From Alphaproteobacteria bacterium (GTDB lineage Bacteria > Pseudomonadota > Alphaproteobacteria > GCA-2731375), in the NCBI GenBank assembly GCA_965225945.1, contig CBDDBZ010000001.1, positions 14,196-38,195 on the forward strand: a DNA stretch of 24,000 nt, in the 5' to 3' direction. Below, one piece after another: positions 16,479-22,306 of the stretch (position 1 is its first letter; every line of letters begins with the position of its first letter). The notes under the pieces were generated by a model that made no database searches, was not told the DNA's origin, and was given only the letters and a program-made list of their open reading frames with translations. Made by a program: the position numbers and the translations under genes.

Positions 16479-16619
16479 GCGAGATCACGCACATCGGTCT
16501 TGTGTGAGCGTCGTCGTTGCGCGACCCTAGCGGCTGCGCGGAGAGATATTTCGACGCCGTCGGCCGCGCCGTCCACCAGGGCGGCGATCGAGCGGGCCGG
16601 CGAGCTCGGGGGAACGCGG

Positions 16620-17199
16620 ATGTCACGCATCGACCTACAAAACGAGAAACACGTCCTGGAGGCGGCGAGCGAGAACCTCAGCGACGGCCTGCTGGGCGAG
16701 GCGGCCGGTGCCTATGGCGAGCTGCTGTCGCACTATGAGGCCCTGGTGCGGCGGCTCGATCGCGACGCTCCCGCCGCCGAGCGGCGAAGCCCCGAGGCGA
16801 TGATGGAGAAGCTGATCGAAATCGGCATCGCGCTCTCGGCCGACCACAACTCCGACCGGCTGATGGAATCGATTTTGCGCGAGGCCAAGGATCTGACCAA
16901 TGCCGATGGCGGCACCCTCTACCGGCGGACCGACGACGACCAGCTCAGGTTCGAGATCATTCGCAACGATTCCCTCGAGATCGCCAAGGGCGGCACCACG
17001 GGGGAGGCGATCGAGTTCGACCCGTTGCCGATGTACGACGAGAACGGCGAGGCGAACTATCAAAACGTCGCGACTCACGTCGCCCTCAGCAAGCGGACCA
17101 TCAGCATTCCCGATGCCTACGACACGGAGGATTTCGACTTCACCGGCACGAAGCGGTTCGACGAAGCCATGGGGTATCGCTCGAAATCCTTCCTGACGG
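16620..17199 (+). pseudogene. 5' fragment of an IS-interrupted GAF/HD-GYP phosphodiesterase gene (N-terminal region plus the first part of the GAF domain)
   Basis: Starts at MSRIDLQNEK and runs through ...LTNADGGTLYRR...FDEAMGYRSKSFLT. The frame is then broken at 17199/17200 by the IS end, which adds 13 IS-encoded codons and a stop at 17238-17240. Confidence 0.85.
17192..17199. repeat. Target-site duplication CCTGACGG (left copy)
   Basis: The identical 8-mer occurs immediately outside both IS termini (17192-17199 and 19631-19638). Confidence 0.85.
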
Positions 17200-17213
17200 G
17201 TAACTACCCAGGT
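17200..17213. repeat. IS terminal inverted repeat (GTAACTACCCAGGT)
   Basis: It is the exact reverse complement of 19617-19630. Confidence 0.9.
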
Positions 17214-17280
17214 CTGATTGGCCCGAGCGTTTGTATGTGAGGGATCGTGGGGGTCCGGGCTGGTAGCGGTGCCGGTGTTC

Positions 17281-18819
17281 TCAGAGGCGCAGTTGGGGGA
17301 TTAGTTGCATCGGATCGGGATGCACCAGGGTCTGGAGGACGTTCCAGCCTTGCTTTCGGGCGGTGGCGATGACGGCACGCATTCTGGCGAAGTTGTAGGC
17401 ACCCCTCTCGGAGCGGAAGCCACCGGAGATCTTCTGGCGCAGCTTGGCCATTCGGAGGTCACGTTCGGCCTCATTGTTCGTAAACGGCGTGCGCGGGTCG
17501 GTGAGGAATCGCAGGCATCCCTCCTTGTGCTTGCGGAGGCGGAGCGCGAGGTTATGACCGATGCGGCGTTTCTTTCGTCCGCGCTTGCCGGTCCGGAGCG
17601 GCGGCTGCGCCTCGTGGAAGGCGATGGCGTGGTCGAGGATGCGGGCCCAGGCCCGCGAGATCCGGGCCACCAGGGAGGCGGGCACGTCGCGGCCGTTCTC
17701 ACGGGAGAAGCGGGTAGCCCTGTGTGCGCGCTCAAGGAGGCGGTGCATGCTCTTTGCCCAGTCTTCCTTCTCGATGTCGATCAGGGCCTGGAGTTCGCGC
17801 AGGTGATGGGCGTTGCAGGCGCCGTGGCGCACGCCCTTGAGGGTGAAGTAGGCGGCGTAATCGTCATGGATGAGGATGCCTTCGAGGTCCTTTTCGACAT
17901 CGCCGCGTCCCGCGCCGATGCGCAGGACGGTCAGGAATGGGGTGCACAGCACGTGGAGCCAGCGGGTACGGGCGGCGATCCGCAGGCCGGTTTCGTCGAG
18001 GTGCTTGACCGGGACCGCTGTGCGGATCACGTCTGCGACATGGGCGAGGAAGGGCTCGAAGCGCCTGGCGATTCGCCGGCCCATGGCGGTGATCGTGGCT
18101 GTGGAGATGGACACTGCGAAGAGGTCGCTCATGAGTTCGGCCAAGCGCTTCTCGGGAACGAACTGGGCGTACAGCAGGTAGCTCACCCAGGCGGTGATGC
18201 GTGGCCCGTACTGGACCGGGGCGGTCACGCCGTCCGGGAAGACGGCTCCTGTCACGGTGGCGCAGGCGCCGCAGAGGCAGCGATGGGCGCGGTGTTCGGT
18301 GACCTCCAGGGGGCGTGGCTCGGGCACATCGAAGACCTGTCGACAGACGGGCGCGCGGTGACGGTCGGCGTCCGACAGCGGTGCGCCGCAGCCCGAACAG
18401 GCGGAGGGGTCATGATCCACAACATGGTCCGGGCTCTCGGTCCGCGCCAGCGTCGTTCCCTTGTGGCCCGGCTGGCCGCCGCTTGGCCTGCCGGACTTGC
18501 CGCGCTGGCTTCGGGTGCGCCTCTGGGTTCCGCTCTTCTTGCGCAGGCCGTCGCTGGCGGGCGGCTTGCTGCTGGTGGTGCTGTCAAGCGCCGCGCTCCG
18601 CTCGAGCTCGGCGATGCGGTCCCGCAGGGTCGCGTTCTCCCGCTCGAGCGCGGCATTCTCCCGGACGAGCGCCGTGGCCAGGCGCAACAGCCCCTGGCCC
18701 CATTCCCGGAAGGCCTTGACGACTGTGATTGCGAAGGATGAGGGGTCAAGAAGATCTTGCAGGCACGCGAAGGCCTCGTCATGGGCGGCGAGGTCCTCGT
18801 GCCAGCGCGACAGCGTCAC
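17281..18819 (-). CDS. IS66-family transposase (TnpC type)
   Basis: 512 aa. N-terminal leucine-zipper-like segment (LVRENAALERENATLRDRIAELE), Cys-rich zinc-finger region (CSGCGAPL...HRCLCGAC), and DDE-type blocks HLDETG, LIHDDYAAY, CNAHHLR and FTNNEAERDLR. Confidence 0.9.
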   Translation of the reverse strand: MTLSRWHEDLAAHDEAFACLQDLLDPSSFAITVVKAFREWGQGLLRLATALVRENAALERENATLRDRIAELERSAALDSTTSSKPPASDGLRKKSGTQRRTRSQRGKSGRPSGGQPGHKGTTLARTESPDHVVDHDPSACSGCGAPLSDADRHRAPVCRQVFDVPEPRPLEVTEHRAHRCLCGACATVTGAVFPDGVTAPVQYGPRITAWVSYLLYAQFVPEKRLAELMSDLFAVSISTATITAMGRRIARRFEPFLAHVADVIRTAVPVKHLDETGLRIAARTRWLHVLCTPFLTVLRIGAGRGDVEKDLEGILIHDDYAAYFTLKGVRHGACNAHHLRELQALIDIEKEDWAKSMHRLLERAHRATRFSRENGRDVPASLVARISRAWARILDHAIAFHEAQPPLRTGKRGRKKRRIGHNLALRLRKHKEGCLRFLTDPRTPFTNNEAERDLRMAKLRQKISGGFRSERGAYNFARMRAVIATARKQGWNVLQTLVHPDPMQLIPQLRL

Positions 18820-19481
18820 GGGTCCTCGGCATCGACGGCCATCATGGCGGCCAGCACCGCGAGGCGTTCGCCCGCCGGCAAGGCCTTGTAACGCCGGCCC
18901 CAGTTGGCCGCCTTACGCTTGATGCGCTGGCGGTCGGTGAAGTTCCGGCCTGCGTAGCTCGCCCAATGCACCCGGTCGGGCGCGAAGTTGAACCACACGA
19001 CCTCGGTCCGCACCTGGGCCTGGGTCGTCACCTGCAGCGCCAGACTGCGCCAGCCCGCCAGCATCTCGTCATAGAGCGCCGAGGGATGGCCCGAGACCAT
19101 CACCTGGCAGGGCAGATCCTTGAGCAGGTCCAGGAGCGCGACATGGTCGACCTCCTCGTAGTCGAAGCGATAGCGCCGTGCCGAACGGCGGGTCGCGTGC
19201 AGATAGGGGGGATCGCTGTAGACCAGCTCCGGGCCCAGAAACGGGAACGAGGCCAAAAAGGCATGGGCACAGCCATGCACCAACTCGACCGGGTAGTCAC
19301 AGGCAAAGGCCTCGAGCGCCTGCGCATCGCGGTCGATGCCGATCGAGCGCACGCCCGTTGGCTTGCGCTTCATCAGCGCACCGCCCCCCAGGTGGCTCTC
19401 GATGTAAACGCTGTGCGGCGGCATCAGCGCAATCAGCGCCTGGCACAGACCGCTCGTCGCCTTCGACCCAAAATATTCCAC
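18816..19481 (-). CDS. D12-class (Dam/phage-type) N6-adenine DNA methyltransferase, carried as IS cargo
   Basis: 221 aa. YFGSK at the N-terminus, SAM-binding ESHLGGGA, IGIDRD, catalytic SDPPY, and QVMVSGHPSALYDEMLAGW, typical of small Dam-like enzymes. GTG start with GGGAG 6 nt upstream. Its TGA overlaps the transposase GTG (GTGA at 18816-18819). Confidence 0.85.
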   Translation of the reverse strand: MEYFGSKATSGLCQALIALMPPHSVYIESHLGGGALMKRKPTGVRSIGIDRDAQALEAFACDYPVELVHGCAHAFLASFPFLGPELVYSDPPYLHATRRSARRYRFDYEEVDHVALLDLLKDLPCQVMVSGHPSALYDEMLAGWRSLALQVTTQAQVRTEVVWFNFAPDRVHWASYAGRNFTDRQRIKRKAANWGRRYKALPAGERLAVLAAMMAVDAEDP

Positions 19482-19616
19482 GCGCCGCTCCCGTCACACG
19501 AGAGCGCAACCCATAGACGCCCGATTCTATGGAGTCAAGAGACGATCAACGACGCGGCGGCGGAAACCCGGCCCCGGCGACCACCTACATCATCCTCTCG
19601 CGGTCAGGAGCGGGGT

Positions 19617-19630
19617 ACCTGGGTAGTTAC
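19617..19630. repeat. IS terminal inverted repeat (ACCTGGGTAGTTAC)
   Basis: It is the exact reverse complement of 17200-17213. Confidence 0.9.
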
Positions 19631-19638
19631 CCTGACGG
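19631..19638. repeat. Target-site duplication CCTGACGG (right copy)
   Basis: Identical to 17192-17199 and directly abuts the IS end. Confidence 0.85.
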
Positions 19639-20981
19639 TACCGATGAAGACGCGCCAGGGCGACGTGATCGGCGTCCTACAGTTGATCAACGCCCGCGAT
19701 CCCTCGAGCGGGAACGTGGTGAGCTTCCCTCGGGAAATCGAGGACTATGTCGGCGCGCTCGCCTCGCAGGCCGCCGTGGCGCTGGACAACCAGCAACTGT
19801 TGGAAGCCCAGAAGGACCTGTTGGATTCCTTCATCATGCTGATCGCCGGCGCGATCGACGAGAAATCGCCTTACACCGGCGGCCACTGCAATCGGGTGCC
19901 GGAACTTGCGATGATGCTGGCTCGGGCCGCCTGCGAGGCCGAGGAGGGTCCCTTCGCCGACTTCGGCTTCGACGAGGAGCAGTGGTACGAGTTCCAGGTC
20001 GCCGGCTGGCTGCACGATTGCGGCAAGGTCACCACGCCCGAATATGTGGTCGACAAGGCGACCAAGCTGGAGACCATTTACGACCGCATCCACGAAGTCC
20101 GCACCCGCTTCGAGGTGCTCAGGCGCGATGCCGAGATCGCCTATCTGAAAGGATGCCTCGACGGCGGCGAGGAGGCGGCATTGGCGGGCCGGCGCGACGA
20201 GGCGATCCGGGGCCTGGAGGACGACTACGCCTTCGTCGCCGAGTGCAACATCGGCGGCGAATTTATGTCGGACGAGCGGATCGAGCGGCTCGGAAAGATC
20301 GCCGAAGTCACCTGGACCCGACATTTCGACGACCGTCTCGGCATCGGCCACGACGAGCAAAGCCGCAAGGAGCGCACGCAGGCCGCACCGCTGCCGGCAC
20401 TCGAGCTGCTGCTCGCCGACAAGGACGAACACCTGATTCACCGCCACCATCGCGAGACGCCGCCGGACGAGGAAGACCGGGGCTTCCGGATGGAAGTTCC
20501 GAAGCACGAGTACGACAACGGCGAGCTGCATAATCTGACGATTCGTCGCGGCACGCTGAACGCTGAGGAACGCTACAAGATCAATCACCACATCATTCAA
20601 ACCATCATCATGCTCGAAAAACTGCCGTTTCCGAAGCATCTGGAGCAGGTGCCGGAATATGCCGCGGGCCACCACGAGAAGATGGACGGCACCGGCTATC
20701 CCCGGCGGCTGGCGCGCGACGAGATGTCGGTGCCGGCCAGAATCATGGCCATCGCCGACATCTTCGAGGCGCTGACCGCCTCCGATCGGCCTTACAAGAA
20801 GGCCAAGACCTTGAGCGAGTTGCTCCGCATCATGGGCTTCATGCGCAAGGACCAGCACATCGATCCCGAGCTCTTCGAGCTGTTCCTCGAAAGCGGCGTC
20901 TACCGGCAATACGCCGAGGAGTTCCTGGAGACGGCGCAGATCGACGAGGTCGATATCGCGGGCTTTTTGGAAGATAGCTAG
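19639..20981 (+). pseudogene. 3' fragment of the IS-interrupted GAF/HD-GYP phosphodiesterase gene (end of the GAF domain plus the complete HD-GYP domain)
   Basis: Contains VPMKTRQGDVIGVLQLINA (GAF end), then the HD-GYP motifs GGHCNRV, WLHDCGK, GHHEKMDGTGYP and IADIFEALTASDRPYKK. The part of the 750-aa track ORF upstream of 19639 is antisense to the MTase and is not part of the gene. Confidence 0.85.
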
Positions 20982-20982
20982 A

Positions 20983-21054
20983 GGGTCGAGGCGGCGTTCC
21001 GCTCGCTCACCGATACCCCGCATCGTCGTCGGGAGCGGAACGCCGCCACGACCC
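20983..21054. terminator. Long near-perfect hairpin (22-bp stem with 1 mismatch, 28-nt loop) just after the HD-GYP stop; putative transcript-end or REP-like structure
   Basis: GGGTCGAGGCGGCGTTCCGCTC (20983-21004) is complementary to GAGCGGAACGCCGCCACGACCC (21033-21054), with a single A/A mismatch. No U-tract follows. Confidence 0.45.
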
Positions 21055-21068
21055 AAAATCATCCCGGT

Positions 21069-22306
21069 CAAACGTTTCAACCTGGTCGGAAAGTGCTCTA
21101 ATGTCCTGATCGATAAATTGATATGATTATGTCTCTATTTGTTTTCAGGAGGCGCGATTGATGGCGAGAGTGGCGGTGACGATCTCTTTGAGCGATGACG
21201 AGCGCGCCGAATTGGAGGCGCTGTCTCGTCGTCGCAAGACGTCGCAGGGGCTTGCGCGGCGGGCTCGGATCGTCTTGGCGGCGGCGGAAGGGTTGGAGAA
21301 CAAGGAGATCGCCGTTCGTCTCGAGGCGAGCGCGGACACCGTGGGCAAGTGGCGTCGCCGCTATGCGGCGGAGGGCCTCGACGGTCTGTACGACGAACCC
21401 CGCCCCGGCGCGCCGCGTCAAATCGGCGATGACGCCATCGCGGAAGCGGTCCGGCTGACGCTGGAAGAGACGCCGCCGGACGCGACCCATTGGAGCCTTC
21501 GCTCGATGGCGCGGGCGAGCGGCCACGCGCCCTCGACCATTCATCGCATCTGGCGGGCCTTCGGCTTGCAGCCGCATCGCTCGGAGACCTTCAAGCTGTC
21601 GAGCGATCCCTTCTTCGTGGAGAAGGTCCGCGACATCGTCGGTCTGTATTTGGCGCCGCCGGATCGTGCCCTGGTTCTCTGTGTCGACGAAAAGAGCCAG
21701 ATCCAGGCCTTGGACCGTTCCCAGCCCCTCTTGCCGATGCGCCCCGGGCAGGCGGAGCGGCGCAGCCACGACTACAAGCGCCACGGCACGACCTCTCTCT
21801 TCGCGGCCCTCGACATCGCCACGGGAGAGATCATCGGCAAATGTTTCCCGCGCCATCGGGCCCGAGAGTTCCGCAAATTCCTCGACCTCGTCGAGGCGAA
21901 CGTCCCTGGTGATCTCGACATCCACATCGTCATGGACAACTACGGGACCCACAAGACCAAGGCGATCCGCGACTGGTTCGCCAAACGGCCGCGCTGGCAG
22001 GCCCATTTCACACTGCTGACCGACAAGCAGATCAGGCGCGGCGTCCATCGCTCCACCAAGGAGTTGGAGCGCACCATCCTCGACTACATCGACACGACAA
22101 ACCAGAACCCCAAACCCTTCAAATGGACCAAATCCGCCGATGACATCCTCGCCGCCATCCAGCGCTTCTGCCTCCGAACAATCGAAATCGCTGAACAGCA
22201 GGCGAAAATCATGCGAACTTCGGAATCGGGACACTAGCCGGACTCTATTGAATGTAACCGATCCGAGCGTCCGCCCACAAGCCGAACGGCGCCAGGTTTC
22301 ACTTTG
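21069..22306 (+). mobile_element. IS630-family element, apparently decaying (degenerate ends, transposase with an internal deletion); boundaries approximate
   Basis: An AT-richer leader (21095-21150) unlike the surrounding DNA precedes the transposase gene. CAAACGTTTCAACCTGG (21069-21085) matches the reverse complement of CCAGGTTTCACTTTG (22292-22306) imperfectly. Further patchy matches lie inward (CTGATCGATAAATTGATA against the reverse complement of TATTGAATGTAACCGATCCG). No clean TA duplication was seen. Confidence 0.45.
21161..22237 (+). CDS. IS630-family transposase, ORF intact but missing about 15 aa that normally carry the third catalytic acidic residue
   Basis: N-terminal HTH region ([31 protein letters not shown]), [15 protein letters not shown] (first D) and [11 protein letters not shown] (second D). 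After RWQAHFT the sequence jumps to [14 protein letters not shown]. From memory, family members have ...HFTPTSASWINQVERWFAELT... at this point. AGGAGG SD upstream of the ATG at 21161. Confidence 0.85.

Follow-up and report, generated by a model that had tools for sequence, protein, structure and literature searches.

An IS66-family insertion sequence with a built-in Dam-related adenine methylase: a candidate self-controlled methylase-transposase operon

Why would an insertion sequence (IS) carry the gene of a DNA adenine methylase directly ahead of its transposase gene? The question is raised by a stretch of 24,000 nucleotides from an alphaproteobacterial genome assembly (GCA_965225945.1, contig CBDDBZ010000001.1, positions 14,196 to 38,195 of the forward strand), referred to below as the window. 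It contains an IS66-family element of 2,431 bp at positions 17200-19630, with perfect 14-bp inverted repeats of the GTAA type and an 8-bp target duplication. Only two long open reading frames (ORFs) in the element are consistent with homology, both on the minus strand, namely a 221-amino-acid (aa) methylase and a 512-aa transposase, which overlap in a GTGA tetranucleotide. A first-pass annotation of the window, prepared from the sequence alone, had described these repeats, the duplication and the two overlapping genes, and all of them were recovered with the same coordinates. Here the methylase gene is described as an integral part of an active, multicopy IS and as the companion of a conserved promoter that overlaps a dyad. 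Whether methylase and transposase form a self-controlled operon is in our judgement an even question.

The spread of the element was assessed in a scan of one genome per species, which located 411 places coding for a relative of the 221-aa methylase; 79 loci were kept. The flanks of the window's own element were present in none of the loci taken, hence the genome of the window lies outside the species representatives sampled. The whole 2,431-bp unit aligned end to end in the kept loci, with about 30 copies at 99.2-99.8% identity and about 45 at 78-90%. An exact 8-bp duplication, distinct for each site, flanked 23 of the 33 full-length copies, and several others were one base off; the inverted-repeat end GTAACTACCCAGGT was identical in about 30 copies elsewhere. 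Three metagenome-assembled genomes (MAGs) contained at least 12, at least 12 and at least 22 copies with different flanks. The methylase gene was located inside the repeats in every copy examined and directly upstream, at a distance of 0-6 nt, in every copy with a window-type transposase, so that the copies without methylase which the first-pass annotation had named as fatal to its proposal did not turn up. The IS66-methylase element is an active, multicopy IS, of which the methylase is an integral part, since the unit recurs as a whole at various sites and with various duplications. A megablast search of the element against the PLSDB plasmids gave no match.

Several individual copies deserve mention. 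A copy 99.4% identical to the window element is present in a Dehalococcoidia MAG (L017, CBDHFB010000011.1, 3846-6276), while the other near-identical copies belong to alphaproteobacterial MAGs; this MAG additionally contains an 84% identical variant of its own (L034, L036-L038). The L017 copy represents either a very recent transfer across phyla or a binning error. Further variants were found in Longimicrobiales and Tectimicrobiota MAGs. The sole locus with a 100% methylase match from residue 1 (L001, CAUVXB020000002.1, 3852-6231) aligns with the element over bases 1-2380 only, its transposase-distal end being missing or replaced. Interrupted copies occur at L096 and L097, where an IstB-like (IS21) gene on the opposite strand follows right after the methylase, and at L032, L062 and L064, where insertions of 2-2.5 kb split the element. 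A solitary methylase gene, 84% identical and with an intact promoter and dyad (L080, 4001-4666), is followed by no transposase gene, and a DUF4096 (IS5-type N-terminal) gene is found in its vicinity; it probably stems from the decay of a copy of the element. The predicted protein P0127 (236 aa), in which the N-terminal two-thirds of the methylase are fused to the C-terminal end of an IS66 transposase, is presumably a deletion derivative.

The assignment of the transposase to IS66, proposed in the first-pass annotation, was borne out by profile searches. The 512-aa protein matched PF03050 (DDE_Tnp_IS66) with an E-value of 3.9e-41 over model positions 2-282 of 284 and the NCBIfam model transpos_IS66 (NF033517) with 290.7 bits (1.8e-86; cut-off 180); it also matched DUF6444, and zf-IS66 at a sub-threshold level. 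Terminal repeats of IS66 elements typically begin with 5'-GTAA. Apart from the three-gene set, all the IS66 features considered were present, that is the DDE domain, the GTAA repeats together with the 8-bp duplication, and the occurrence at multiple sites. Neither tnpA nor tnpB was found in the element with its two ORFs, and for want of the canonical tnpA-tnpB-tnpC set the element is placed in the single-transposase (ISBst12-like) subgroup. One cluster of transposase homologues (P0271, 98% identical) comprises 797 members. The closest relatives of the transposase that come without a methylase are lone-transposase ISs at 55-59% identity, the nearest of them at L089.

The 221-aa protein shows the methylase motifs X (YFGSK), I (HLGGGA) and IV (DPPY, residues 90-93) in the order known from Dam. 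Among 37 diverse and 26 close relatives, D90, P91 and P92 are invariant and G32 and G34 nearly so; the loss of catalytic residues that the first-pass annotation had considered is not seen. On its own, the window protein reaches 13.1 bits against the Pfam model PF02086 (D12), below the cut-off of 22, and it matches TIGR00571 only in part, in the region of motifs IV-VIII. Of the 37 diverse relatives, 35 match PF02086 at E<0.1, the best at 9e-15, and a profile built from all 37 finds DpnM at 8.7e-10 and Escherichia coli Dam at 4e-6. Other libraries gave matches to PADLOC MTase_II (7e-22) and to PHROG 56 'DNA methyltransferase' (1e-19). At cut-offs of E<=1e-3 the family comprises 3,794 clusters at 90% identity, and 5,554 clusters were counted at 50%.

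The profile alignment with DpnM falls into two pieces, residues 3-68 corresponding to DpnM 17-80 (motifs X and I) and residues 82-160 to DpnM 184-267 (motif IV onward). A target-recognition domain (TRD) of about 100 residues, situated between motifs I-III and IV in DpnM, is consequently absent, and with this region missing a specificity for GATC should not be assumed. A structure prediction with AlphaFold (AF2) from the single sequence had a mean predicted local distance difference test (pLDDT) value of 33 and was not usable, whereas the alignment-based run reached 91.6 and was used. The predicted model consists of a bare Rossmann core with two extra C-terminal helices (residues 181-219). Its best fold matches in the PDB are DpnM, E. 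coli Dam, Mcbe1 and T4 Dam; the template modelling (TM) scores of only about 0.5 are to be expected with a domain missing. The helical pair 181-219 is basic and conserved and is the sole candidate for a DNA-binding part, as the domain profile searches matched no helix-turn-helix (HTH) family in the methylase. The first-pass annotation had called the protein a D12-class enzyme with all expected motifs. Its motifs and its kinship with the Dam/DpnM family, by profile and fold, stand, but the D12 match of the window protein remains sub-threshold and the TRD is lacking. It is very probable that the 221-aa protein is a catalytically active member of the Dam lineage of adenine methylases. Such a TRD-less enzyme would be either a minimal N6-adenine methylase, a non-specific one, or one with a new mode of recognition; its likeness to the Hia5 family suggests that its specificity may be relaxed. 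Between window-type variants, the ratio of nonsynonymous to synonymous substitution rates (dN/dS) amounted to 0.16-0.25 for the methylase and 0.24-0.61 for the transposase. The methylase is under purifying selection and is constrained at least as much as the transposase.

The methylase gene is not confined to the transposase of the window. In a set of 80 metagenome contigs that code for methylases 66-78% identical to that of the window, many of them 2.2-2.8 kb long and thus of whole-element size, the next gene after the methylase is nearly always a transposase gene. The partners include a large IS66 lineage with about 30% identity to the window transposase (also at L081-L083), a third IS66 lineage at about 33% identity with either of these, single cases with other IS66-type N-termini (DUF6444, LZ_Tnp_IS66), and a transposase from another family, DDE_5 (IS701-like). 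This last partner is documented by two 99.96% identical copies of a 2.68-kb IS in one gammaproteobacterial MAG; three genes are enclosed by its own repeats (CTCAAGAGTCCCGAGTTCTCG / CTCATGAGTCCCGACTTCTCG), namely that of the transposase, the methylase gene preceded by the dyad promoter, and an ORF of 117 aa. At L098 and L135, where a DDE_5 transposase gene follows the methylase, a nested insertion had been suspected, an explanation rejected because the two near-identical copies have their own inverted repeats enclosing both genes. The 117-aa ORF is located ahead of the methylase gene in the opposite orientation (L171/L172, 1745-4422; L170) and has no Pfam match; a homologue occurs at L135 39-422. 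Elsewhere, a 77% identical relative of the DDE_5 transposase comes without a methylase.

Altogether, the carriers comprise at least three deeply divergent IS66 lineages and the unrelated DDE_5 transposase. The ends of the IS66-type and the DDE_5-type carriers are wholly different (GTAACTAC... versus CTCAAGAGTCCCGAG...), and the gap between methylase and transposase in the other lineages measures 10-130 nt. The methylases are 0.70-0.77 identical across transposase types, an identity no lower than that within the largest type (0.77). In a neighbour-joining tree, admittedly a crude method and with short internal branches, those methylases that belong to the third IS66 lineage and to the DDE_5 type branch from within the large lineage. 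From these sequence comparisons we take it as certain that the cassette moved between backbones of two IS families at least once, and as probable that it did so three times.

A block of 30 nt, TTGAC(A)-N2-yRTAG-N10-CTAYG, is conserved 57-70 nt upstream of the methylase start. It was present in 105 of 109 unique upstream regions, and the exact pattern occurred once per gene in 139 loci. The block reads as a near-consensus promoter of the sigma-70 type (TTGACA, 17 nt, TAYGCT) with an overlapping dyad. Among 93 unique sequences TAG and CTA are invariant, and the ten bases between them vary freely. The invariant TAG is located in the spacer, where the promoter has no requirement, and the invariant CTA within the -10, its adenine being the -11 base. 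Next to the dyad core stands a base pair that is A-T in 67 of these sequences and G-C in 9; another 9 show it half-changed, and the DDE_5 type has C-G. The arms of the dyad reach 10 bp in some lineages, with compensatory differences. The dyad of the window is the only such site in its 24 kb; a simple promoter scanner misses the window promoter, the last -10 base being G in this lineage. Across the carriers the dyad tracks the methylase and not the transposase, and the same dyad, at times in tandem, also precedes stand-alone relatives, among them genes on plasmids of Xanthomonas, Shewanella and Lichenicola as well as genes on other contigs. The dyad therefore belongs to the methylase gene and not to the IS.

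Some further properties of this region were recorded. About half of the unique promoters, mostly those of the large sister lineage, have a GATC just past the -10 (positions 32-35 of a 36-nt block, ...CTATGCTGTTGATCC...; e.g. L099, 1139-1175). The window lineage has no GATC at this position and one GATC just upstream of the -35, at 19544-19547. Dyad half-sites (CTAC/GTAG) in the ends of the IS were dropped from consideration, since they are not conserved between lineages. A LexA-type box was set aside as the identity of the dyad, whose spacing and sequence appear not to match known LexA boxes.

Outside ISs, the nearest relatives of the methylase (42-55% identity) are stand-alone genes annotated as 'DNA adenine methylase'. 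They were found in 189 plasmid records, 134 of them from conjugative plasmids, in the P2-like phages SEN4 and SEN5, and adjoining a Phage_GPA replication gene; the plasmid and phage records searched held no relative above 60% identity. In the neighbour-joining tree the IS-borne methylases form one clade, separated by a long branch from the plasmid and phage orphans. By sequence relationship, the IS cassette is a descendant of orphan methylases of conjugative plasmids and phages. A Sphingobium plasmid methylase beside an ISSp1 (IS1380) transposase was rejected as a further partnership: the adjacency is accidental, because the same backbone block leads to other genes in other plasmids. At L121 (3501-5027) a methylase with dyad promoter is followed, 7 nt past its stop, by a gene for an Ogg-HhH (8-oxoguanine DNA glycosylase-like) protein, with no transposase.

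These features can be combined in a composite model of a self-controlled methylase-transposase operon, to which we assign roughly equal chances of being right and wrong. A single promoter would drive both genes together, and the GTGA overlap would couple their translation; with a joint transcript and coupled translation, the supply of transposase would depend on the methylase promoter. The dyad is the candidate site of methylase action, through binding, through methylation of the TAG/CTA adenines including the -11 adenine, or through both. Such action would shut the promoter of the methylase itself and render the operon self-limiting. If a plasmid or phage brings the element into a naive cell, where methylase is lacking and the site is unmodified, the operon would fire and give a burst of methylase and transposase, whereas its expression would stay low in an established host. 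Shielding of the carrier DNA from restriction may be a further role of the methylase, as is supposed for the plasmid and phage relatives. A broader proposal, which we put forward tentatively, is that the TRD-less methylase and its dyad promoter constitute a portable control module that has been recruited repeatedly by unrelated DDE transposases (at least three deep IS66 lineages and the IS701-like DDE_5 type) and would make transposase expression self-limiting and independent of the host, with firing in a naive cell and later silencing, either epigenetic or by binding.

Other explanations of the arrangement have to be weighed against this model. The methylase could be plain cargo, an orphan anti-restriction or methylome-modifying enzyme within a transporter IS that takes no part in transposition and is of use to any plasmid, phage or host in which the IS resides, the upstream slot simply tolerating a promoter-bearing cassette. 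Orphan methylases are indeed among the functions most enriched in plasmid leading regions (PMC11541004), the stand-alone relatives are found on plasmids, most of the plasmid records being conjugative, and on the P2-like phages, the IS66 family is already known to contain transporter ISs, and the promoter with its dyad also exists without any transposase. Against this, at least four transposase backbones of two IS families have acquired the same cassette, repeatedly and always in one place and direction. It is also constrained no less than the transposase itself, and most copies are chromosomal, where anti-restriction brings the element little; moreover, no separate promoter is visible for the transposase, whose gene overlaps the methylase stop codon. 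We consider the cargo explanation possible but somewhat doubtful. The involvement of the enzyme in transposition could take another form, that of a sensor of replication or entry as in IS10 and IS50, in which the enzyme methylates the ends or the promoter and only hemimethylated or unmethylated copies transpose, independently of host Dam. The control of IS10, IS50 and IS903 by Dam is well established, and the operon's -10 with its invariant CTA offers an adenine at -11. The ends, on the other hand, contain no GATC, which also weakens the comparison with IS10 and IS50 drawn in the first-pass annotation; a methylation site shared in the ends is excluded by the complete dissimilarity of the IS66-type and DDE_5-type ends. 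A sensor of this kind appears improbable.

The same accessory-gene slot could be filled by a catalytically dead methylase fold that replaces TnpA/TnpB as a DNA-binding factor. The loss of the TRD and the extra basic pair of C-terminal helices would suit such a function, but the (near) invariance of DPPY and of the glycine-rich S-adenosylmethionine loop across the diverse and close relatives would be unexpected for a dead enzyme, and this possibility is considered very unlikely. Chance adjacency, or the secondary insertion of a methylase into a single IS copy, has practically no probability left: nothing was found in its favour, and it is refuted by the conservation of the unit including its ends in more than 70 copies at 78-100% identity from many genomes and in at least 58 further metagenome contigs of the sister lineage.

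The operon model itself faces several difficulties. Both the activity of the methylase and its action at the dyad are predictions, and apart from the two basic C-terminal helices the protein, lacking the TRD of Dam, has no recognisable DNA-binding domain. The half-sites of the dyad are 15 bp apart from centre to centre, an unusual spacing for a dimeric repressor, and the dyad is absent from five stand-alone relatives, half of those sampled. It could be bound instead by a widespread host factor; binding by the transposases, whose N-termini are unrelated, is unlikely. The -10 of the window lineage (TATGGG) is weaker than those of other lineages, and an internal transposase promoter may exist. 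Given the gaps of 10-130 nt in other lineages, translational coupling is not general. Finally, the purifying selection on the methylase is explained equally well by plain anti-restriction cargo.

The features of the element and of its insertion site are compiled in Table 1.

Table 1 Features of the IS66-methylase element and its insertion site (positions in the 24,000-nucleotide window)
Feature	Position	Strand	Basis or remark
5' part of interrupted host gene, GAF domain region	16500-17199	plus	
Target duplication, copy 1, CCTGACGG	17192-17199	none	sequence read directly
Terminal inverted repeat GTAACTACCCAGGT, transposase-distal-to-promoter end	17200-17213	none	read directly and repeat search
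IS66-family DDE transposase, 512 aa (DUF6444 N-terminal region, weak zf-IS66, DDE_Tnp_IS66)	17281-18819	minus	
GTGA overlap of methylase stop TGA and transposase start GTG	18816-18819	minus	TCAC on the plus strand
Dam/DpnM-related methylase core, 221 aa (MEYFGSK/YIESHLGGGA/VYSDPPY)	18816-19481	minus	
Putative methylase-transposase operon promoter: -35 TTGACT (19538-19533), 17-nt spacer, -10 TATGGG (19515-19510)	19510-19538	minus	
Dyad CCATAG-N10-CTATGG over spacer and -10	19511-19532	none	upstream alignment
Terminal inverted repeat ACCTGGGTAGTTAC, promoter-proximal end	19617-19630	none	read directly and repeat search
Target duplication, copy 2, CCTGACGG	19631-19638	none	sequence read directly
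3' part of interrupted host gene, rest of GAF and HD_5/HD-GYP domain	19639-20981	plus	

The repeat search stretches the ends of the IS to 16 nt by including flanking GG/CC. When the element and one copy of the duplication are removed, a single uninterrupted frame results, coding for a protein with GAF and HD_5 (HD-GYP type) domains; the insertion into this gene is clean and probably recent. Directly after the stop of the HD-GYP gene, at 20983-21054, there is an inverted repeat of 22 nt with arms 95% complementary and 28 nt apart, which could be a terminator, an element of the repetitive extragenic palindromic (REP) kind or an IS end. It precedes a second mobile element at 21098-22238 with an IS630-type transposase ORF of 359 aa (21158-22237, plus strand; HTH_32/HTH_29 and DDE_3). 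Copies of this IS630-type element with 99.5% identity adjoin IS66-methylase copies at L012 (2663-3844) and L022 (2259-3443) and differ from the window copy by a 45-bp indel.

As far as can be told, three features are new here: a TRD-less Dam-like enzyme as a standing component of an IS, the conserved promoter with its dyad, and the reuse of the cassette across transposase lineages and families. With the single-transposase (ISBst12-like) members of IS66 the element has in common the DDE_Tnp_IS66 domain, the 8-bp duplication, the GTAA ends and the lack of tnpA and tnpB, but it adds an unrelated, promoter-bearing gene upstream that overlaps the transposase gene. A gene other than that of the transposase, enclosed by the ends and carried along in transposition, is also the mark of the transporter ISs (tIS), which bear passenger genes and, according to the TnCentral preprint, occur only in the IS1595 and IS66 families (bioRxiv 10.1101/2021.05.26.445724). 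As tIS are recognised in IS66, the category as such is already known, and the first-pass description of the arrangement as unusual holds only in part. In the literature searched, a search which ISfinder lay outside, no IS66 element with a methylase gene of its own was described. The methylase cassette differs from tIS passengers in that it is not lineage-specific; it recurs in several IS66 lineages and in the DDE_5 IS, always in the promoter-proximal position. Unrelated transposases have reused it in many phyla and habitats, and its relatives amount to thousands of metagenome protein clusters.

Among orphan methylases, the nearest non-IS homologues are genes of plasmids and phages, some of which have the promoter dyad, and such orphans are prominent in the leading regions of conjugative plasmids (PMC11541004). 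The characterised single-stranded DNA methylases M.EcoGIX and M.BceJIII are of the beta class (PMC7736820) and for this reason serve as an analogy only, whereas the window protein is Dam-like and carried by an IS. A further comparison is offered by Hia5 and Hin1523, Dam-related, non-specific methylases of Mu-like prophages with a divergent recognition region (PMC3299994). Common to them and the window protein are a Dam/DpnM-related core with DPPY and FxGxG and an aberrant recognition region; according to the published description, on which the comparison is based, Hia5 still has some 90 residues of divergent sequence in this region, which the window protein lacks. If the methylase does control the operon, the element would possess a dedicated transposition regulator of its own, a compact and host-independent switch that operates upon horizontal transfer, and genomes rich in these elements would have a widespread source of orphan adenine methylation.

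Restriction-modification systems include self-regulating methylases and controller proteins, for instance M.SsoII-type enzymes with an N-terminal HTH. The window system resembles them in the dyad operator over the methylase promoter and in the proposed logic of early expression followed by shut-off; it differs in having no detected HTH and no restriction enzyme, and in that its downstream gene codes for a transposase. In IS10/Tn10, IS50/Tn5 and IS903, control by Dam depends on the host enzyme and on GATC sites. These elements tie adenine methylation to transposase expression or to the activity of the ends, and their dependence on Dam is also cited elsewhere (PMC2864759); for the window element such a tie is a proposal, with a candidate adenine for methylation in the -10 and no GATC in the ends. 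The textbook methylation-regulated transposons use the methylase of their host, whereas the element described here brings an enzyme along and would thereby supply its own.

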